Source: Anaerolineae bacterium
GTDB taxonomy: Bacteria > Chloroflexota > Anaerolineae > B4-G1 > DUEL01
Direction of reading: 5' to 3'
DNA length: 64,000 bases
NCBI GenBank assembly: GCA_036172315.1
Contig: JASFBC010000018.1
Location: forward strand, 246-64,245
Part shown: positions 4,739 to 43,297 of the stretch, one piece after another
Position numbering within the stretch: position 1 is the stretch's first letter
Layout: every line of letters begins with the position of its first letter
Translations under genes and position numbers: made by a program
Notes under the pieces: model-generated
Told to the model about the DNA's origin: nothing
Databases searched by the model: none
Seen by the model: only the letters and a program-made list of their open reading frames with translations

Positions 4739-5405
4739 AAGGATTCCTCAAAACAAGACGGGTTGAGTGGTCGCCGGTTTTGTCAATCGAGCGAGATCAT
4801 TCAGGGCCGACTTTGTGCGTTTGCATGCTCTCCGTTATCCCTCCCTCTCCTCCACTAGGCCTGTGGCCAGGGGAAAAGGAGAGATTGGAGGCAGGTGACC
4901 AATCCAATTATATCTCATTCCGACAAGCAGGCAATCATGCGTATTCACGGATTACATCTCTTTCCTCGCCAGCAGCGGGAGGATCATTCCTCATCACTAC
5001 CGTCACTACCCGTTTGTCAGGAAAGCCGATAGCAGGTATAATGTTGGCGAAAAAGTAACGATTCAGCCCGATGGAGGTCACCCTCCTGGTGCCAATTGGA
5101 AATCGGTCTCCCTGGACGCTTTGCGCCGGGCGTCAACACTCGGGCGAATTTTATTTTGGACGCAGATTCACGCAGATTCTCTCGGATTATCTCTGGAAAT
5201 CGTAATTGTTCAGCCCGATGGAGATCGCCCTCCCGCAGACCACAGACCGTAGACCACAGATGACGGTGGTCGGTGGTCCGTAGTCGGTGGTCTGTCGTCC
5301 ACCGTCTGTCGTCCATCCCGGAAGGACGGCGCACGCCATCCATTGGCCAGAGGCCCGGGGAAGACAAAGCGCCGAATAGTTACAAAATACCATAAGGAGG
5401 CACCC

Positions 5406-35309: not shown

Positions 35310-36680
35310 ATGGTTATGCGCCTGCTCATCCGCCAGGTGGCCGCCATCCCGCTGGACGGCGAACACAACCTGCTTCCCGAGGTGGACATCGCCATAGAGG
35401 ATGGGCGAATCCGGGCCATCGGGACGGTCCCGCCCGATTTCGTCCCCGAGCAGACGATAGACGGGCGGGAATGGGTGGCCCTCCCGGCTTTCTTCAACGC
35501 CCACACCCATGCCGCAATGACCCTGGAGCGGGGCTGGGCGGAGGACCTGCCCTTTGACCGCTGGCTGAACGAGAAAATCTGGGTGGCCGAGTCGGCGCTG
35601 GAGGAAGAAGACGTCTACTGGGGCGCGGCGCTGGCCTGCTGCGAGATGATCCGCTCCGGCATCGTCGGCTTCGCCGACCACTACTTCTGGATGCATCAGG
35701 TTGCCCGCGCAGTCGCCGAAGCCGGAATGAAGGCGAACTTAGCCTGGTGCCAGTTCGGCATCGGCGCCGAACAGGAAGTGGGCGGTGCCACGCTGGAGGA
35801 TACCGTCGCCTTTATCCGGGAGTGGCATGGCGCGGCGGAGGGTCGCATCCGCTGTGCGCTGGGGCCCCATTCCCCCTATATGTGCCCGCCGGCGTTCCTT
35901 CGCCGCATCGTGGAGGAGGCGGAGCGGCTGGGGGTGGGCATCCACCTGCACGTGGCCGAATCCCAGGAACAGGTCGCCAACTCGCTGAGGGCCCACGGCC
36001 GGACGCCAGTGGCCCATCTGGCTCACCTGGGCGTCTTTGACCATCCCACTATCGCTGCCCACTGCATCGCCGTTACCGATGAGGATTTGGCCATCCTGGC
36101 GGAGAAGGGGGTCTGGGTAGCCCATACCCCCAAGACCTACATGAAACTGGCGATGGGGATGGCCCCGCTGGATCGCTTTCTGGCAGCAGGGGTCCGGGTG
36201 GCGCTGGGGACGGATGGGCCGGCCTCCAACAACGACCTGAACATGCTGGAGGTTCTGCGCATCACGGGACTGGTGCATAAAAACCGGGTCGGCGACCCGG
36301 CGGCATTCCCGCATCCCCTGCTCCTGCGGTGGGCGACGCAGGAGGCAGCCCGCGCATTGGGGTTTGCATCTGAGGGGACGGTTGCCCCTACGACGGTCGC
36401 CCCCACGCCTGTGGGCGTCCTGCGGCCCGGCGCCCCCGCCGACCTGATCCTGATGGACACCCGGGGTGTCCACTGGACCCCGCGCCACGACCTGGCCGCC
36501 AACGTTATCTACGCCAGCCACCCCGCCGATGTCCGCTACGTCTTCTGCGACGGACGGCCTCTGCTGTGGGACGGCGAACTGGTCACGCTGGACGAAGAGC
36601 GCATCCGCTACGAGGCGGAGCGGCGGGCCTTCCGTATGACCGGCACGCCGATGCGGCAGGTGCGGAGGTACGGGGGATAG
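35310..36680 (+). CDS. Amidohydrolase, 5-methylthioadenosine/S-adenosylhomocysteine deaminase (MtaD)-like
   Basis: LPAFFNAHTHAAMTLERGWAEDLPFDRWLNEKIW...HLHVAES...GTDG. An extended -10 (TGTATAAT) lies upstream at about 35268. Confidence 0.75.
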   Translation: MVMRLLIRQVAAIPLDGEHNLLPEVDIAIEDGRIRAIGTVPPDFVPEQTIDGREWVALPAFFNAHTHAAMTLERGWAEDLPFDRWLNEKIWVAESALEEEDVYWGAALACCEMIRSGIVGFADHYFWMHQVARAVAEAGMKANLAWCQFGIGAEQEVGGATLEDTVAFIREWHGAAEGRIRCALGPHSPYMCPPAFLRRIVEEAERLGVGIHLHVAESQEQVANSLRAHGRTPVAHLAHLGVFDHPTIAAHCIAVTDEDLAILAEKGVWVAHTPKTYMKLAMGMAPLDRFLAAGVRVALGTDGPASNNDLNMLEVLRITGLVHKNRVGDPAAFPHPLLLRWATQEAARALGFASEGTVAPTTVAPTPVGVLRPGAPADLILMDTRGVHWTPRHDLAANVIYASHPADVRYVFCDGRPLLWDGELVTLDEERIRYEAERRAFRMTGTPMRQVRRYGG

Positions 36681-36707
36681 AGCCATATTTTCTTCGGAGG
36701 CGATAGG

Positions 36708-37997
36708 ATGAACTTCATCACTGCTCTTCGCTGCACCATCTGCGGCGCCTATTACCGCGTGGATGAGGCGGACTACGTCTGCCCCCACCACGGGAACGAT
36801 GGCATCCTGGATGTGGTGTACGACTACGACCGCATCCGGCGGGAGGTCTCGCCCCGGGAGTTAACCGCCAGCCCGGAGCGCTCCATCTGGCGCTACATGC
36901 CCCTCCTGCCGGTGGATCCGGAGGTGGCCCGACGGCTGGCGGAGGGGACGGTGTTGGGGAGTGTCGGGTGGACGCCGCTCTATCCGGCCCCCCGTCTGGC
37001 CCAGGGGTTGGGGCTCCGGCACCTCTGGATCAAGGACGATAGCCGCCAGCCCACCGCGTCCTTCAAGGACCGCGCTTCGGCAATGGCGGTCGTCAAGGCG
37101 CGAGAGCGCGGGGCGGAAGTGGTGACGACGGCCAGCACGGGCAACGCCGCCGCCGCCCTGGCAGGGCTCTGCGCCGCCGTCGGGCAGCGCAACGTCATCT
37201 TTGTTCCCCGGACTGCCCCCCAGGCCAAAGTGGCCCAACTCCTGGCTTTCGGCGCTACCGTCCTGCTGGTGGACGGCACCTACGACCAGGCCTTTGACCT
37301 CTGCCTGGAGGCGTCGGCGGCCTTCGGCTGGTACAACCGCAATACGGCCTACAACCCGTACATGTCCGAGGGGAAGAAGACCGCCGCCTACGAAATCTGC
37401 GAGCAACTGGCCGTACAGAGAGGGGATTCGGCTCCCTTTCAGCCTCCGGATGTCATCCTTATCCCCGTCGGCGACGGGTGCATCATCGGCGGCATCCACA
37501 AGGGGTTGCGGGACCTGGCCGCGCTGGGCTGGATAGACCGCATGCCGCGCCTGATCGGGGTCCAGGCTGAGGGCTCCTCCCCGCTGGTGGACGCCTGGGA
37601 GCGGGGGCTGGAGGGCTGGGAGATGAAGCCTGTGGAAGCCCATTCGGTGGCCGATAGCATCGTCGCGGGCCTCCCCCGCGACCGTATCAAGGCGCTGCGC
37701 GCGGTGCGGGAGACGGGCGGGGCCTTCCTCCGCGTGAGCGACGAGGAGATTCTGGCCGCTATCCCCGCGCTGGCCCGGGGCTGCGGCGTCTTCGCGGAGC
37801 CGGCGGCAGCGGCGGCTTATGCTGGTCTTGTGAAGGCCGTGGAGCGGGGACTGGTAGGGGCGGATGAGCAGGTCGTCGTCCTGGCCACCGGCTCCGGCCT
37901 GAAGGACGTCGCCAGCGGGATGAAGGCGACGGGTCAGCCCCTCACCGTCGCCCCTGACCTGGAGGACGTCCGGCGGGCGCTGCTCCAACGTGCCTGA
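36708..37997 (+). CDS. thrC: Threonine synthase with N-terminal zinc-ribbon
   Basis: CTICGAYYRVDEADYVCPHH ribbon. PLP Lys motif SFKDRASAMAVVKA...TASTGNAAAALAG. Confidence 0.85.
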   Translation: MNFITALRCTICGAYYRVDEADYVCPHHGNDGILDVVYDYDRIRREVSPRELTASPERSIWRYMPLLPVDPEVARRLAEGTVLGSVGWTPLYPAPRLAQGLGLRHLWIKDDSRQPTASFKDRASAMAVVKARERGAEVVTTASTGNAAAALAGLCAAVGQRNVIFVPRTAPQAKVAQLLAFGATVLLVDGTYDQAFDLCLEASAAFGWYNRNTAYNPYMSEGKKTAAYEICEQLAVQRGDSAPFQPPDVILIPVGDGCIIGGIHKGLRDLAALGWIDRMPRLIGVQAEGSSPLVDAWERGLEGWEMKPVEAHSVADSIVAGLPRDRIKALRAVRETGGAFLRVSDEEILAAIPALARGCGVFAEPAAAAAYAGLVKAVERGLVGADEQVVVLATGSGLKDVASGMKATGQPLTVAPDLEDVRRALLQRA

Positions 37998-38039
37998 CGC
38001 CTCTGAAAGGGCCAGGCACGTCCAGGAGGAGGAAATGCA

Positions 38040-39200
38040 ATGAAACGAGCCATCTATATGGACTATTCTGCCACCACACCGGTGGACCCCCGGGTGGTGG
38101 AGGCGATGGCGCCCTACTGGAGCGATGTCTTCGGCAACACTTCATCGGCCCACACCTGGGGGCAGGCCGCCGCAACGGCACTGGAGCGGGCGCGGGAGCG
38201 GGCGGCCCACATCTTGGGCTGCCGCCCGTCGGAGATCGTCTTCACCGCGTCGGGGACGGAGGCGGATAATCTGGCCCTGCGCGGCATCGCCTGGGCCGCC
38301 CGTCGGGCCGGCCGGGGCAACCACATCATCACCACCCCCGTGGAACACCACGCGGTGGAAGCCACTGTGGAGCAACTCCATCGCCTCTTCGGTTTTGAGG
38401 TGACGGTTGCTCCGGTGGACGGGCACGGGCTGGTGGATCCGGAGGAGGTCCGGCGGGCTATCCGTCCCGATACTCTCCTGGTCAGCGTGATGACGGCCAG
38501 CAACGAGGTCGGCACGGTTCAACCTATACCGGAGATTGCCGCTGTCTGTCGGGAGCACGGCATCCCCCTCCACACCGACGCAGTCCAGGCCGCCGGGCGG
38601 ATGGCGCTGAACGTGGAGGAACTGGGGGTGGACCTGCTGGCCCTTTCGGCCCACAAATTCTACGGCCCCAAGGGGGTGGGCCTTCTCTACGTCCGGAGGG
38701 GGCTGGCGCTGATACCGGCCATCACTGGCGGGGGACATGAGGGGGGCCGTCGTCCCGGGACGGTCAACGTGGCCGGCATCGTCGGTATGGCGACCGCGCT
38801 GGAACTGGCGGAGGCGGCGCGGGAGGAGGAGACGGCCCGCCTGGCCCGTCTGCGAGACCGGCTGATAGCGGGCGTCCTCTCCGCCATCCCGGACGTCCGT
38901 CTGACCGGTCATCCGACCCGACGGCTCCCCCACCTGGCCAGTTTCGCCATCCGGGGCGTGGAGGGAGCCTCGGTGGTGGTCGGGCTGGACCTGGAGGGGA
39001 TTGCGGCCAGTTCCGGGGCGGCCTGCGCGGAGGGGGAGGCCCGCCCATCTCCGGTGCTGGAGGCCATGGGATTGCCGCCGGACTGGGCCGTGGGGGCGCT
39101 GCGCCTCTCCCTGGGTCGGTACAACACTGAAGAGGACGTGAATGCTGTTCTGGAGGTCCTCCCGCGCGTGGTGGCCCGGCTGCGGGAGGAGCCCTCGTGA
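38040..39200 (+). CDS. iscS: Cysteine desulfurase (IscS/NifS class)
   Basis: IYMDYSATTPVDPRVVEAM...SAHKFYGPKGVG (PLP Lys)...SSGAACAEGE (catalytic Cys loop). Confidence 0.85.
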   Translation: MKRAIYMDYSATTPVDPRVVEAMAPYWSDVFGNTSSAHTWGQAAATALERARERAAHILGCRPSEIVFTASGTEADNLALRGIAWAARRAGRGNHIITTPVEHHAVEATVEQLHRLFGFEVTVAPVDGHGLVDPEEVRRAIRPDTLLVSVMTASNEVGTVQPIPEIAAVCREHGIPLHTDAVQAAGRMALNVEELGVDLLALSAHKFYGPKGVGLLYVRRGLALIPAITGGGHEGGRRPGTVNVAGIVGMATALELAEAAREEETARLARLRDRLIAGVLSAIPDVRLTGHPTRRLPHLASFAIRGVEGASVVVGLDLEGIAASSGAACAEGEARPSPVLEAMGLPPDWAVGALRLSLGRYNTEEDVNAVLEVLPRVVARLREEPS

Positions 39201-39269
39201 GAGGTCGGCAGGACGTGGATTTCGCAGAGGTAGGGTGGAAGTACGGAAAAGACAAGGAGGATAGAGAAT

Positions 39270-40067
39270 CTGGAGGACCTGGAAGCGCTGGAGCAGGTTT
39301 TTCGGAAATATCCGGACATCCGGGCCGTCTACCTTTTCGGGTCGGCTGCGGAGGGACGGGAAGGGCCCGAGAGCGACCTGGACCTGGCGGTAGTCCCTCG
39401 CTCTCCGGCCGCTCGTGCCCATCGCCTGGACATCCTGGCCGACCTGGCCCGGGTGGGTTTCTGTAGAGTGGACCTGGTCTTTCTGGATACCGACGACATT
39501 GTCCTGAAGTATGAGGCCATTCGCCTCAATCGGACGGTGTATCAAACAGCGGATTTTGACCGGGGGGAGATGTATTCCCGCGTTGTGCGGCAGTACCTGG
39601 ACTTTTTGCCGTATCTGCGGGTACAGCGCCAGGAATACAAGCGGAGGATTGCCGATGATTCGGGTAGAGGTCATCGTAAACGGCTGGATAAACTGGGTGA
39701 ATACTTATCTATTCTGCGGAAACTGCGGGAGTATGAATGGGAGGAGTTCATTCGCGATCCCGAGCGCTATGGAAGTGCAGAACGCTTCCTCCAACTGGCG
39801 ATTGAGGCCGTTAACGACATCGGAAGCCACCTTATTGCCGCGCTGAGCCTAGGGACGGTCAACTGGTACAGCGACATCCCGGTGATTCTGGAGGAAAAAG
39901 AGTACATCCCTCCTGAACTCCGGGAGCGGTGGATTCGGATGATCGGTTTCCGGAACGTGCTGGTTCACGATTATCTGGAGGTAGACCGCCGGGTTGTCTA
40001 TGAGGTGCTCCAAAGAGGTCTAGAGGACTTGGAGGCACTGCGGAGTGTCTTTGCGCAATTTCTATGA
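39270..40067 (+). CDS. Fused minimal nucleotidyltransferase (MntA-like) / HEPN (HepT, DUF86-like) protein; start codon unresolved
   Basis: A single open frame runs from the stop at 39231 to the stop at 40067. It contains the NTase motif LFGSAAEGREGPESDLDLAV, then the HEPN Rx4HxY motif FRNVLVHDY. There is no ATG, GTG or TTG before the GTG at 39453. An AAGGAGG RBS lies at 39254-39260. The TGA overlaps the mnmA ATG (ATGA). Confidence 0.6.
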   Translation: MEDLEALEQVFRKYPDIRAVYLFGSAAEGREGPESDLDLAVVPRSPAARAHRLDILADLARVGFCRVDLVFLDTDDIVLKYEAIRLNRTVYQTADFDRGEMYSRVVRQYLDFLPYLRVQRQEYKRRIADDSGRGHRKRLDKLGEYLSILRKLREYEWEEFIRDPERYGSAERFLQLAIEAVNDIGSHLIAALSLGTVNWYSDIPVILEEKEYIPPELRERWIRMIGFRNVLVHDYLEVDRRVVYEVLQRGLEDLEALRSVFAQFL

Positions 40068-41152
40068 ACCGCCATGTTGTAGTTGCAATGAGCGGAGGGG
40101 TGGATAGCAGCGTCGCGGCCGTGCGGCTGGTGGAGCAGGGCTACCAGGTGACCGGGGTGATGCTGCGACTGTGGGCCGAGCCCGCCGCCGGTTGTCGGGA
40201 TAACCTCTGCTGCACGCCGGAGGCGGTGGCGCGCGCGCGGGACGTCGCCGCGCGGCTGGACATCCCGTTCCATGAGGTGGACATGCGGGAGCCCTTCCGC
40301 CGCGCCGTTGTGGAGACCTTCATCGCCGAATACGCTGCCGCCCGTACTCCCAACCCCTGCATCCCCTGCAATCGGGAAATCCGATTCGGGTTGCTGATGC
40401 AATGGGCCCTGGAGCACGGTGCCGACTATCTGGCGACCGGCCATTACGCCCGAGTCCGCCAGGTGGGGGACCGCTATCAACTGCTGCGGGGCCGGGACCG
40501 CACCAAAGACCAGTCCTACGTCCTGCACATCCTGACGCAGGCGCAATTAGCGCGCGTCCTTTTCCCCCTGGGCGACCTGACCAAGAAGGGGGTCCGGGAA
40601 CTGGCGCGGGCCCGGGGCCTCCCCATCGCCGACCAGCCGGAGAGCCAGGATATCTGCTTTCTGGCGGACGGGGACTACCGTCGGTTCGTCGCTGAACATA
40701 TGCCGGAGGCGGTCCGCCCTGGCCCTATTCTGGACAGGGCGGGCCGGGTACTGGGGGAGCACAGAGGGCTGATTCACTACACCATAGGCCAGCGGAAGGG
40801 CATCGGCGTGGCGGCTCCGCATCCCCTCTACGTCCTGGACATGGACCCTCAGCGCAATGCCCTGATCGTTGGACGGGCGGAGGAGTTGGGGCAATTGGAG
40901 TGCGTGGTGGCCCGGATGCACTACATTTCCGGCGAGGAGCCGCCGGGGCCTTTTGAGGCCACCGCCCAGATTCGCTACCGCCACAGGGAGGCCCCGGTGG
41001 TCGCCACGCCCCTGCCGGGAGGCCGCCTCCACGTCCGCTTCGCCGTCCCCCAGCGGGACATCACCCCGGGCCAGTACCTGGTCCTGTACGACGGCGAAGT
41101 CGTCCTGGGGGGCGGGGTAATTTGTGCGCCTTGGGAAACCGTGATACAATGA
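40064..41152 (+). CDS. mnmA: tRNA-specific 2-thiouridylase
   Basis: VVAMSGGVDSSVAAVRL PP-loop, CIPCNREIRFG, and a catalytic Cys region. Confidence 0.9.
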   Translation: MNRHVVVAMSGGVDSSVAAVRLVEQGYQVTGVMLRLWAEPAAGCRDNLCCTPEAVARARDVAARLDIPFHEVDMREPFRRAVVETFIAEYAAARTPNPCIPCNREIRFGLLMQWALEHGADYLATGHYARVRQVGDRYQLLRGRDRTKDQSYVLHILTQAQLARVLFPLGDLTKKGVRELARARGLPIADQPESQDICFLADGDYRRFVAEHMPEAVRPGPILDRAGRVLGEHRGLIHYTIGQRKGIGVAAPHPLYVLDMDPQRNALIVGRAEELGQLECVVARMHYISGEEPPGPFEATAQIRYRHREAPVVATPLPGGRLHVRFAVPQRDITPGQYLVLYDGEVVLGGGVICAPWETVIQ

Positions 41153-41290
41153 AGTCGTCTTGGGGGAGGGTGATTTGTGCGCCGGGGGAAAGCGTGATAC
41201 AATGTCTTTAAAGAAGCACATCCTGACCACCTACAGCGATGAGGAGACTTTTCTAATCGGGGAAGCGCCATCCTACTGAGAGGGAGAGCG

Positions 41291-41761
41291 ATGGGAACAA
41301 GGGGTGAAAATCCAGAAGCAATCCCCACGCCCGCCGAGGCCCGCCTGAAGCGCAACCTGATCCTGAGCCTGCTCCTCGTGGGCGCGTTTATGCTGGGTAT
41401 GATCGCCTTGCTGGTGGTGCTGGCGGTGGACGCCTATCGCTCTCCGGTCCAGCCCAGCCCGGGGGCGGCGGTCGTCTCCCTGATGCGGGATGCGGCTATC
41501 ATCCTGGTCGCCTGTGAGACCCTCCTGATCGGCATCCTGCTCATTATCCTGACGATCCAGGTGCAGGCGCTGGTGTCGCTCCTTCGGGACGAGATTCGCC
41601 CGATGTTGGAGACCCTCAACGACACCCTGGCGACCGTCCGGGGGACGACGCGGTTTGTCAGCCATCATCTCGTCTCCCCGACCATCCAGGCGGCCAGTTT
41701 TATGGCCGGCGTGCGGCGGGTGCTGAAAGAGGTCGCGGGGTTCTTTAGAGGCGCACAATGA
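41291..41761 (+). CDS. Hypothetical N-terminally membrane-anchored protein (YtxG/DUF948-like)
   Basis: GAGGGAGAG RBS. TM helices, then a helical region. Normal composition, unlike the overlapping minus-strand ORF. Confidence 0.5.
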   Translation: MGTRGENPEAIPTPAEARLKRNLILSLLLVGAFMLGMIALLVVLAVDAYRSPVQPSPGAAVVSLMRDAAIILVACETLLIGILLIILTIQVQALVSLLRDEIRPMLETLNDTLATVRGTTRFVSHHLVSPTIQAASFMAGVRRVLKEVAGFFRGAQ

Positions 41762-41796
41762 TCCGTGAAAATCCGGCGAGTTTTTCTTTCTAGGAC

Positions 41797-41984
41797 GTGA
41801 TTGAGGCCGTGGAGGCTCTGCCTCCAGATGACAGGCTTTGCTGGTGGAAATCATCCGCCAGCGGTTGGTCCAATACCGCCGTAAAGCACTGGCGGCGGAG
41901 ATTGCCGAGGCCCGTGAAGCCTACCAGCGGGGTGAGGTACGCCGGGGCACAGTGGCTGATTTAATGCAGGAACTGGCAGATTGA
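41797..41984 (+). pseudogene. Putative antitoxin of RelE/ParE pair; apparent frameshift near 41829
   Basis: A GTG-start frame gives MIEAVEALPPDDRL..., then shifts +1 into ...LLVEIIRQRLVQYRRKALAAEIAEAREAYQRGEVRRGTVADLMQELAD*. The stop overlaps the toxin TTG start. Confidence 0.4.
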
Positions 41985-42265
41985 GGACGCTGGTCTGGAG
42001 CGCAACGTTTGTACGGGCTTTCAAGCGGGCTGTCCGTCGCCAGCCGGAACTTCGGGCCAGGATTGAGCGCACCCTTCAACAATTGGCAGAGGATCCGTTT
42101 CATCCCACGCTACACAGCCACAAACTGAAGGGCGAATTGGCTGGCTCATGAGCCTGCACTGTAGATTATGACAACCGTATCCTTTTTGAGTTCGTCTAAA
42201 ACCCTGAGTCGGGGGAGGAAGAAATCCTTCTACTGACGATGGGAACCCATGACGAGGTTTACTGA
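41981..42265 (+). pseudogene. RelE/ParE-family toxin with two in-frame nonsense codons (TGA 42150-42152, TAA 42198-42200)
   Basis: (M)RTLVWSATFVRAFKRAVRRQPELRARIERTLQQLAEDPFHPTLHSHKLKGELAGS*ACTVDYDNRILFEFV*NPESGEEEILLLTMGTHDEVY* matches the RelE/ParE fold signature (HKLKG..., ...LLTMGTHDEVY). The frame is continuous but interrupted twice. Confidence 0.6.
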
Positions 42266-42297
42266 GGTATTCTCCCACAGAAACAGGAGGACTTCCC

Positions 42298-42687
42298 ATG
42301 GCAAAAGACAATGGCAGCGATGTGGTGGCCTTTCTGGCCGGATTCGTGGTCGGTGGGCTGGTGGGAGCGGCGGTGGCGCTGCTCTTCGCCCCCCAATCCG
42401 GTAAGGAGACGCGGGCTCAAATTCGGGCCAAAGGCGTGGAACTGAGCGAGAAGGCAAAGGAAGAAGCCGAACGGGCGCGCCTTCGGGCGGAGCAGGCGCT
42501 GGAAGAAGCCCGCGCCAAGGCGGAAGCGGTCGCCGCCGACCTTCGCCGCCGGGCCGAGGAGATCCAGGCCCAGGGACAGGTGGTCCTGGAGGAGGGCCGC
42601 CGGCAACTGACTGAGGTGGTGGAAGGAACCCGCAAGGCCGTCACCCGGGCCCGGGGAGGCGCCCCCGTCGAAGAGCCTTCAGCCTGA
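42298..42687 (+). CDS. YtxH-like protein (N-terminal TM + coiled-coil)
   Basis: VVAFLAGFVVGGLVGAAVALLFAPQSGKETR is the YtxH-type start. The rest is helical and charged. Confidence 0.6.
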   Translation: MAKDNGSDVVAFLAGFVVGGLVGAAVALLFAPQSGKETRAQIRAKGVELSEKAKEEAERARLRAEQALEEARAKAEAVAADLRRRAEEIQAQGQVVLEEGRRQLTEVVEGTRKAVTRARGGAPVEEPSA

Positions 42688-42811
42688 CTACTACGGCATC
42701 GGGAGCAACGGTCGGAAACCGCCGTAAGAGAGCGGAAGGGACCGCGCGCCCTACGTCCTTCGCGTTTCCTTTCCCGTTTTACGCATTCCGTTCCACCCTG
42801 CGAGGTGACCG

Positions 42812-43297
42812 ATGGAACTCCTGACCGTTCGTATCCAGAAACCGGATGACGTCAACTTCATCCTGGGAATGAGCCACTTCATCAAGACGGTGGAGGACAT
42901 CCACGAGGCACTGGTGAACACGGTGCCGGGCATCCGCTTCGGCCTGGCCTTCTGCGAGTCCTCCGGCCCGGCCCTGGTCCGCTGCAGCGGCACCGATGAG
43001 GCTATGATAGAACTGGCGAAGCGGAACGGACTGGCCATCGGTGCGGGCCACTCGTTCCTCATCTTTCTGGCCCCCGGTTTCTATCCTATTAACGTCCTCA
43101 ACGCCGTCAAAGCGGTGCCGGAGGTCTGCCGCATCTTCTGTGCCACCGCCAACTCCGCCGAGGTCATCATCGCCCAGACGGAGCAGGGACGGGCTATCCT
43201 GGGAGTGGTGGACGGTGTCAGCCCCAAAGGGGTGGAGGGACCGGAGGAGGTAGCCCACCGCAAGGAGTTCCTGAGAAAAATCGGCTACAAATTGTAG
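42812..43297 (+). CDS. Adenosine-specific-kinase-family (PF04008-like) protein
   Basis: MELLTVRIQKPDDVNFILGMSHFIKTVEDIHEAL... About 160 aa, resembling the PF04008 family from memory. The assignment is unverified. Confidence 0.4.
   Translation: MELLTVRIQKPDDVNFILGMSHFIKTVEDIHEALVNTVPGIRFGLAFCESSGPALVRCSGTDEAMIELAKRNGLAIGAGHSFLIFLAPGFYPINVLNAVKAVPEVCRIFCATANSAEVIIAQTEQGRAILGVVDGVSPKGVEGPEEVAHRKEFLRKIGYKL

Follow-up and report, generated by a model that had tools for sequence, protein, structure and literature searches.

A merged MNT–HEPN reading frame between a cysteine desulfurase gene and mnmA

The 64,000-nucleotide (nt) stretch of contig JASFBC010000018.1 from an Anaerolineae bacterium analysed here (hereafter, the window) carries, between a cysteine desulfurase gene and the tRNA-thiolation gene mnmA, a single open reading frame (ORF) in which a MntA-like minimal nucleotidyltransferase (MNT) domain is followed by a HepT-like HEPN domain and at the head of which no canonical start codon is found. 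Base-level alignments with relatives show this fused ORF to have arisen through the loss of one C at 39675/39676 in a canonical two-gene type VII toxin–antitoxin (TA) pair, and the missing start is a single private T>C substitution at 39244 or else a consensus error. We put at roughly 60% the probability that the locus is a TA module in the first stages of decay, disarmed of its toxin by a young lesion and silenced further by the loss of its start, and not an evolved component of tRNA thiolation; a role of the fusion in sulfur relay is unlikely.

The module and the two genes that flank it lie on the forward strand. Downstream of an in-frame TAG (39231–39233), the frame is open from 39234 through to the TGA at 40065–40067 and, translated from the ancestral start discussed below, comprises 274 codons plus the stop (39243..40067). 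The original prediction, made from the letters of the window alone, that a MntA-like nucleotidyltransferase (NTase) and a HepT-like HEPN domain share one ORF is confirmed by the translation and by the profile searches proposed along with it, which place each domain above its curated cut-off: the NCBIfam MntA_antitoxin model matches residues 24–127 of the 277-aa conceptual product with 79.2 bits (cut-off 60), and HepT_toxin matches residues 151–268 with 118.5 bits (cut-off 60). The Pfam models Polbeta, NTP_transf_2 and HepT-like score 65.6, 32.6 and 105.7 bits, respectively. Both catalytic motifs named in that prediction are present as well. The GS-x10-DxD motif of the NTase (G33 S34 ... D45 L46 D47, counting the codon at 39243 as 1; 39339..39383) falls inside the Polbeta, NTP_transf_2 and MntA_antitoxin matches, and the ribonuclease (RNase) motif Rx4HxY of HEPN reads R237-N-V-L-V-H242-D-Y244 (39951..39974). 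The HEPN domain itself (39678..40064), recognised by NCBIfam HepT_toxin, Pfam HepT-like and Foldseek, presently lies in the mntA frame. Y244 is the expected AMPylation site, in keeping with the role described for the Tyr beside RφxxxH (PMC13000451, PMC7641770).

In the AlphaFold2 model, the fused protein forms two folded domains with a mean predicted local distance difference test (pLDDT) score of 90; at a predicted template modelling (pTM) score of 0.59, the relative packing of the MNT and HEPN domains is not reliable, and the model confirms the domains only. A long C-terminal helix of MntA (residues 107–138) is followed by a break at 139–141 and then by the first HEPN helix, with pLDDT falling to 66–80 over the junction residues 131–150. 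The junction, ...KRRIADDSGRGH|RKRLDKL..., is polar and Gly-rich and joins the MntA tail to HepT from residue 8 onwards. The sole cysteine of the protein, C74, belongs to the MNT domain, and residues 146–274 contain none. Foldseek TM-scores reach 0.86–0.91 to chains of Shewanella oneidensis HepT and 0.72–0.80 to MntA chains.

Loss of a single base within the mntA–hepT overlap

In the orthologous loci, hepT overlaps mntA by 38 nt and is read in the +1 frame relative to it. At 39675..39676, on the boundary of hepT codons 7 and 8, DNA alignments and the multi-locus alignment place ATCG of the window opposite ATCCGY of the orthologs; at base level, the window reads ATGATTCGGGTAGAGGTCAT-CGTAAACGG, against ...GTCATCCGCAAACGG in the orthologs, and is short of one C. 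Falling within this overlap, where hepT is read in +1, the deletion shifts the remainder of hepT into the mntA frame. The former translation start of hepT persists as a relict (39643..39657), in which a GGAGG (39643–39647) is followed by a 7-nt spacer and an ATG (39655–39657), in the +1 frame with respect to mntA and aligned with the hepT starts of the relatives L001 and L010–L014 (loci and homologous proteins are cited by L and P numbers, respectively). The only product that this start can still yield is an out-of-frame ORF of 63 codons (39655..39846), which forms the C-terminal part of the ORF at 39511–39846 (…PMIRVEVIVNGWINW…PR*). Since the old start gives nothing beyond this 63-aa out-of-frame peptide, the window lineage is no longer able to produce free HepT. 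The genes flanking the module, which encode a PALP-family enzyme, the cysteine desulfurase, MnmA and a 156-aa ORF, have kept their full length and match the relatives in gene order; random sequencing noise therefore does not account for the lesions.

A sister strain retains the ancestral start codon

The ancestral start codon of mntA is occupied in the window by ACG (39243..39245), owing to T>C at 39244. Eight orthologs were included in the alignment of this region, and all carry a canonical start opposite the ACG, either ATG (L010–L014 and L034) or GTG (L008 and L015). As had been noted from the sequence, the fused frame of the window contains no ATG, GTG or TTG ahead of the GTG at 39453, which lies 3′ of the NTase motif. 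This GTG (39453..39455), which has no upstream Shine–Dalgarno sequence, was chosen as the start in the public gene call P0002 (204 aa), found in the protein search with 100% identity over 77% of the query. P0002 is thus a truncation without the NTase catalytic motif, a gene-caller fallback imposed by the ACG.

The second member of the 90%-identity cluster of P0002 is P0121, a 274-aa protein that begins MEKTRRIENLEDLEAL... and is identical to the window translation from 39243 except for M1 in place of T1. Its contig, L038 (4729 nt; Logan assembly of run SRR24425660), aligns without gaps to window positions 38175–42903 and differs from them at three nucleotides only (99.94% identity). L038 has the same 1-nt deletion as the window, but a T opposite 39244, so that the gene starts with ATG. 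The fusion is therefore reproducible in an independently assembled contig, and the lack of a start comes down to one private T>C at 39244 or to a consensus error. The other two differences between L038 and the window are G66D in MnmA (40260) and V28L in the 156-aa ORF (41372). All three are nonsynonymous, with the window in the derived state at sites conserved in every ortholog, which suggests that they may be private variants with a mildly harmful effect, or else errors in the consensus of this assembly. A scan of metagenomes for the start-region allele, with either ATG or ACG, returned no match.

State of the locus in related genomes

The closest loci belong to metagenome-assembled genomes (MAGs) assigned to Thermoflexus, Thermoflexales and Anaerolineae. 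The protein search recovered about 15 fused homologs (250–309 aa, 48–76% identity) along with many stand-alone MntA proteins (145–152 aa), the latter with up to 84% identity to the N-terminal half of the fused protein. On the contigs that encode the closest stand-alone MntA, P0017 (L001–L004), the neighbourhood is the same as in the window, with genes for a PALP enzyme, the cysteine desulfurase, MntA (149 aa), HepT (137 aa), MnmA and a 156-aa ORF in this order. Two intact genes occupy the site in L001–L004, in five named MAGs of Thermoflexales, Thermoflexus sp. and Anaerolineae (L010–L014) and in the metagenome contigs L039 and L040, and the two-gene loci at this site are counted as nine Thermoflexus-like assemblies from seven distinct lineages. 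Other states are a different fusion (L008), a disrupted hepT (L041) and an eroded remnant only (L034). When species-representative genomes were scanned by tblastn with four proteins to score the state of the locus, the loci of those with both halves were of the two-gene kind in about 18 cases, fused in one and disrupted in other ways in three. A degenerate pattern of the junction matched three metagenomic contigs, each of which carries the two-gene allele in intact form. The question posed by the original prediction, whether orthologous loci carry separate or fused genes, has been answered mostly in favour of separate mntA and hepT. At least 10 related assemblies have the module in this syntenic position, with the cysteine desulfurase gene on one side and mnmA on the other, and no integrase or phage genes adjoin the module.

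Three of these loci carry further rearrangements. In L041 (4910–5030; Ga0209162_1008248), hepT is interrupted by a palindromic element of about 130 nt that resembles a miniature inverted-repeat transposable element (MITE), is flanked by duplicated AGAAAAAGG and has outer arms GTCATTGCGAGG...CTCGCAATGAC and inner arms CGAAGCAATCTCC/GGAGATTGCTTCG; a related MITE-like copy is located in the spacer between the cysteine desulfurase gene and mntA of L013 (2841–2927), and the window has no copy. The same hepT of L041 has a second inactivating change in its Rx4H motif (approximately 5085–5095), where the catalytic Arg is replaced by Trp (GGATTCTGGAAC, which reads G-F-W-N). In L034 (3001–3780; DAOTWL010000188.1), a frameshifted mntA remnant is followed by sequence rich in G/C runs, with no hepT, a picture of advanced decay of the module.

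Recurrent origin of fused forms

Reconstruction of the fusion junctions from DNA revealed a different junction in every fused relative examined. The window and L038 share the 1-nt deletion at hepT codon 7/8, whereas in L008, at the same locus, the start is GTG, the hepT ATG had already mutated to ACG, and the frames were joined by a 1-nt deletion near codon 10. Single-nucleotide deletions likewise account for the fusions of L005 (codon 3), L007/L009 (codon 8) and P0004 (codon 2), and insertions for those of P0003 (5 nt, upstream of a TTG start) and L006 (29 nt, upstream of a GTG start). At least seven independent fusions with distinct junctions thus occur among the relatives. P0009, from the cultured species Thermoflexus hugenholtzii, is different again at the protein level. 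This 250-aa fused paralog reads SDPDLAV in place of SDLDLAV, has a truncated C-terminus and may be a degraded fusion or a low-quality sequence. No fused clade sharing one junction was found: P0003 and P0004 (77% identical) differ in their junctions, as do P0005 and P0009 (72% identical). Fusions arise easily in this MntA/HepT subfamily because its genes overlap in the +1 arrangement, so that any net −1 change of frame near the junction, be it a 1-nt deletion or an insertion of 5 or 29 nt, makes an FhepTA-like fusion of the kind described below.

Selection and divergence

The ratio of nonsynonymous (dN) to synonymous (dS) divergence, ω, calculated against L001, amounts to 0.19 in the MNT part and 0.13 in the HEPN part, with 0.10–0.14 for the flanking genes. 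The divergence from L001 itself is two to three times higher in the TA module (39243–40064; dN 0.11, dS 0.57–0.82) than in the flanking genes for the PALP enzyme, the cysteine desulfurase and MnmA (36708–39197 and 40064–41149; dN 0.03–0.05, dS 0.33–0.37); either the module evolves faster or it was exchanged by recombination. Only the window has 17 of the nonsynonymous and 14 of the synonymous changes, a somewhat raised ratio that is still within the range of intact orthologs (0.43–1.36), and accordingly either the lesions may be recent or constraint may persist.

Flanking genes and the overlap with mnmA

The profile matches of the flanks confirm that the module sits between genes for a cysteine desulfurase and MnmA. 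The upstream neighbour (38040..39200), of the NifS/IscS type, matches Pfam Aminotran_5 with 290 bits and the NCBIfam models NifS and IscS with 480.7 and 368.9 bits, each below the equivalog cut-off of the respective model, and is 92–94% identical to the gene in the same position in L001 and L010–L014. The downstream neighbour, mnmA (40064..41152), encodes the tRNA 2-thiouridine(34) synthase (NCBIfam NF001138, 428.6 bits, cut-off 284). Directly 5′ of the cysteine desulfurase gene lies the gene for the PALP-family enzyme (36708–37997, 429 aa), which has an N-terminal Cys-rich segment, CTICGAYYRVDEADYVCPHH, and is syntenic in L001 and L002. A scan of 36400–41600 for promoters and terminators yielded nothing informative.

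The ATG of mnmA (40064) shares the tetranucleotide ATGA with the TGA of the fused ORF, as predicted, and this overlap had been taken as a feature of the fusion that implied translational coupling within a sulfur-relay operon. The two-gene orthologs L011–L014 have the same ATGA overlap, as has L008, and since it is shared by two-gene orthologs, the overlap is evidently ancestral. In the ortholog L010, mnmA is preceded by a 67-nt spacer without a Shine–Dalgarno sequence, and for that reason we regard mnmA as independent of coupling and set coupling aside as an explanation for why the fused frame has been kept open. Where hepT ends and mnmA begins, the spacer of L001 (4827–4893) holds one copy of a GC hairpin, GCAGGCCGCCCGGCCTGC, and that of L002 (4827–4914) holds two; the insert is bordered by TGAACC and TGAGCC, which suggests insertion into the ancestral ATGA overlap.

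Comparison with known single-chain and two-gene systems

Fused MNT–HEPN proteins are already known. FhepTA (SO_1440, 276 aa) is encoded by prophage CP4So of Shewanella oneidensis (Yao et al., Nucleic Acids Res 2026, PMC13000451), and in Shewanella fused and two-gene forms with more than 90% similarity coexist (PMC13000451). Full-length FhepTA is non-toxic, as is an engineered MntA–HepT fusion, whereas the isolated HEPN domain is toxic (PMC13000451). The MNT domain puts three adenosine monophosphates on the Tyr beside RφxxxH in an intramolecular, linker-dependent reaction and prevents dimerisation of HEPN, the two cysteines of which constitute a redox switch (PMC13000451). The window protein resembles FhepTA in being a single chain (~275 versus 276 aa) of MNT–HEPN architecture with both motifs and in having highly similar two-gene forms in related genomes; by analogy, the same chemistry would be expected, namely oligoAMPylation of the Tyr in cis and a non-toxic full-length protein. 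The two differ, however, in several respects. The FhepTA linker consists of 3–5 hydrophobic residues and is needed for self-oligoAMPylation, whereas that of the window protein, DDSGRGH, is polar and glycine-rich; the redox-switch cysteines are absent from the window HEPN domain; FhepTA-type proteins are carried by prophages or mobile genomic islands, the window module by a chromosomal, syntenic operon; the window fusion goes back to the loss of 1 nt where the genes overlap by 38 nt, whereas the Shewanella pairs are separated by a 15-bp intergenic spacer; and the mutated start codon is a feature of the window genome that FhepTA does not share. Given its local origin from a two-gene ancestor, the fusion is probably convergent with SO_1440 and not related to it by shared descent.

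The canonical type VII systems, MntA/HepT of S. oneidensis (SO_3165/SO_3166; PDB 5YEP, 7BXO, 6M6U) and MNT/HEPN of Aphanizomenon flos-aquae (PDB 7AE2–7AE9), belong to the same domain families as the window protein, with E-values of 1e-9 to 3e-5 in the PDB sequence search, although the identity is only ~20–26%. In type VII modules, MntA keeps the growth-inhibiting RNase HepT in check through oligoAMPylation of the Tyr. The canonical systems are encoded by two adjacent genes, antitoxin first, whereas the single ORF of the window fixes the stoichiometry at 1:1. An N-terminal Pol-beta-type NTase and a C-terminal helical domain are also combined in one chain in ANT(4')/KNTase, ANT(9) and ANT(3''), but whole-length Foldseek matches to ANT structures (6SXJ, 6UN8) are weak, with a TM-score of ~0.4, a root-mean-square deviation of 8–10 Å and 12–15% identity. 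Membership in the ANT/KNTase group was rejected, as the NCBIfam ANT models score 18–26 bits against cut-offs of 340–545 (best, 25.9 versus 400). The C-terminal domains of ANT/KNTase enzymes are not known to carry the Rx4H RNase motif. CapRel(SJ46), an autoinhibited single protein in which an antitoxin domain is covalently joined to a toxin domain (cited in PMC13000451), shares the concept, but its fold and chemistry are unrelated, being those of a toxSAS pyrophosphokinase as opposed to a HEPN RNase with an NTase. No evidence of a phage-sensing trigger was obtained for the window module.

Decaying toxin–antitoxin module or functional fusion

The ancestral state was a chromosomal type VII TA module of Thermoflexus-like Chloroflexota, with the antitoxin gene mntA followed by the toxin gene hepT, between the cysteine desulfurase gene and mnmA. 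Loss of one C inside the overlap brought the remainder of hepT into the mntA frame and created the 274-codon MNT–HEPN ORF. In the scenario that we favour, the protein, if translated, should by analogy behave like FhepTA, its MNT domain (GS-x10-DxD) oligoAMPylating Tyr244 beside R237-x4-H242 in cis and thereby switching the RNase off, and in the window genome the loss of the start codon would silence the fused gene further. That the fusion is young is supported by the Shine–Dalgarno sequence and ATG of hepT, which are still intact, by the low ω of both halves and by the private changes of the window, which do not have the look of neutral change. A disarmed toxin would accord with the non-toxicity of FhepTA and of the engineered MntA–HepT fusion (PMC13000451). 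Decay of the toxin is supported by the repeated hits that hepT has taken at this locus: fusion in the window and L038 and again in L008, the MITE-like insertion with the Arg>Trp replacement in L041, and erosion in L034. That fused forms are transient is supported by the private junction of every fused relative examined and by the dominance of two-gene loci among the species representatives.

Several observations weigh against the decay scenario. Both catalytic motifs and the entire 274-codon frame are intact, with no sign of decay besides the two lesions. The fusion of L008, which has a GTG start and has lost the internal ATG of hepT, keeps both motifs, and this conservation implies that a fused form can persist for some time. 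The example of FhepTA shows that a fused protein can function as a unit and be subject to regulation (PMC13000451). The ACG may be a consensus error, in which case the gene would simply be an ATG-initiated fusion, and tests based on dN/dS have low power on so short a branch.

The strongest competitor draws on much of this evidence. Under it, the window would encode a functional FhepTA-type single-chain MNT–HEPN protein under selection, translated from the ancestral start, the ACG being a consensus error or a weak near-cognate start, and the product would be a self-AMPylating RNase sensitive to the ATP level or to proteolysis. We consider this possible though unlikely. In its favour stand the intact ORF with its GS-x10-DxD and Rx4HxY motifs and a model pLDDT of 90; the ATG of the sister strain L038, and the resemblance of all three window-private single-nucleotide polymorphisms to errors or deleterious variants; and the independent fusion of L008, which occupies the same locus, starts with GTG and has kept its motifs, together with the approximately 15 fused homologs in databases and the experimentally established function of FhepTA (PMC13000451). 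Yet each fused relative examined has a distinct junction, no fused lineage has been seen to persist through divergence, and two-gene alleles dominate among the relatives. Moreover, the linker DDSGRGH is a chance product of the frame, unlike the hydrophobic FhepTA linker that is essential for self-AMPylation, the HEPN domain offers no cysteines for a redox switch of the FhepTA kind, and in the window genome the start codon is gone.

It is improbable, in our estimate, that the single-base conversion between two genes and a single chain represents a recurrent, selected toggle, eased by the 38-nt +1 overlap, with the stable residence of the module between the cysteine desulfurase gene and mnmA, and the joining of its stop to the mnmA start, reflecting a functional link between a HEPN RNase and tRNA 2-thiolation. 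If this were true, the fused allele with its weak initiation would serve to tune the translation of mnmA or the turnover of tRNA.

The original prediction itself explained the absent start differently, by initiation at the CTG at 39270 or the ATA at 39261, set by an AAGGAGG at 39254–39260, or by recoding. The AAGGAGG is present there, 9 nt 5′ of the CTG and hence at a workable spacing, and no canonical start exists 5′ of the NTase motif. As an initiation signal, however, it fails: it lies 3′ of the ancestral start at 39243, inside the ancestral ORF, within codons K3-T4-R5-R6 (39254..39260), positions at which orthologous MntA proteins have the partly conserved KTRR, KTRG or KSRG, and it occurs in the window at chance frequency (10 copies, with 10.0 expected from shuffles). 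We therefore reject it as the ribosome-binding site of the gene. CTG and ACG initiate in bacteria at roughly ≤1% of the level of ATG. Eight of the eight aligned orthologs start at 39243, L038 has ATG there, and neither a slippery site nor any recoding signal came to light, all of which makes non-canonical initiation or recoding very improbable. Least credible of all is the view that the fusion is an artefact of sequencing or assembly and that the true genome has two intact genes, for although the deletion falls in a two-base homopolymer (CC) and the source is probably a MAG, as are all the closest loci, the same deletion is present in the independently assembled contig L038 (run SRR24425660), no indel breaks a frame in 8 kb of flanking genes when these are compared with the orthologs, and the relatives hold other natural fusions.

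Implications

The architecture had been regarded as unusual on account of its apparent integration into sulfur relay. This view finds no support, given that a 1-nt deletion in a two-gene module kept by the relatives accounts for it and that FhepTA (PMC13000451) and about 15 fused homologs are already known; it is a recent mutational version of a type of fusion already on record, and no novel device for recoding or sulfur relay. What appeared to be a start-less bifunctional sulfur-relay enzyme is a canonical TA pair changed by two point lesions, and the value of the finding is mainly corrective. Beyond this correction, the module keeps its place with unusual stability, and the presence of intact, fused, MITE-disrupted and eroded states at a single locus across a genus-level clade allows these states to be compared, and the natural series of fusions lets one ask whether the single-chain form lasts as an alternative design or only disarms the toxin for a time.

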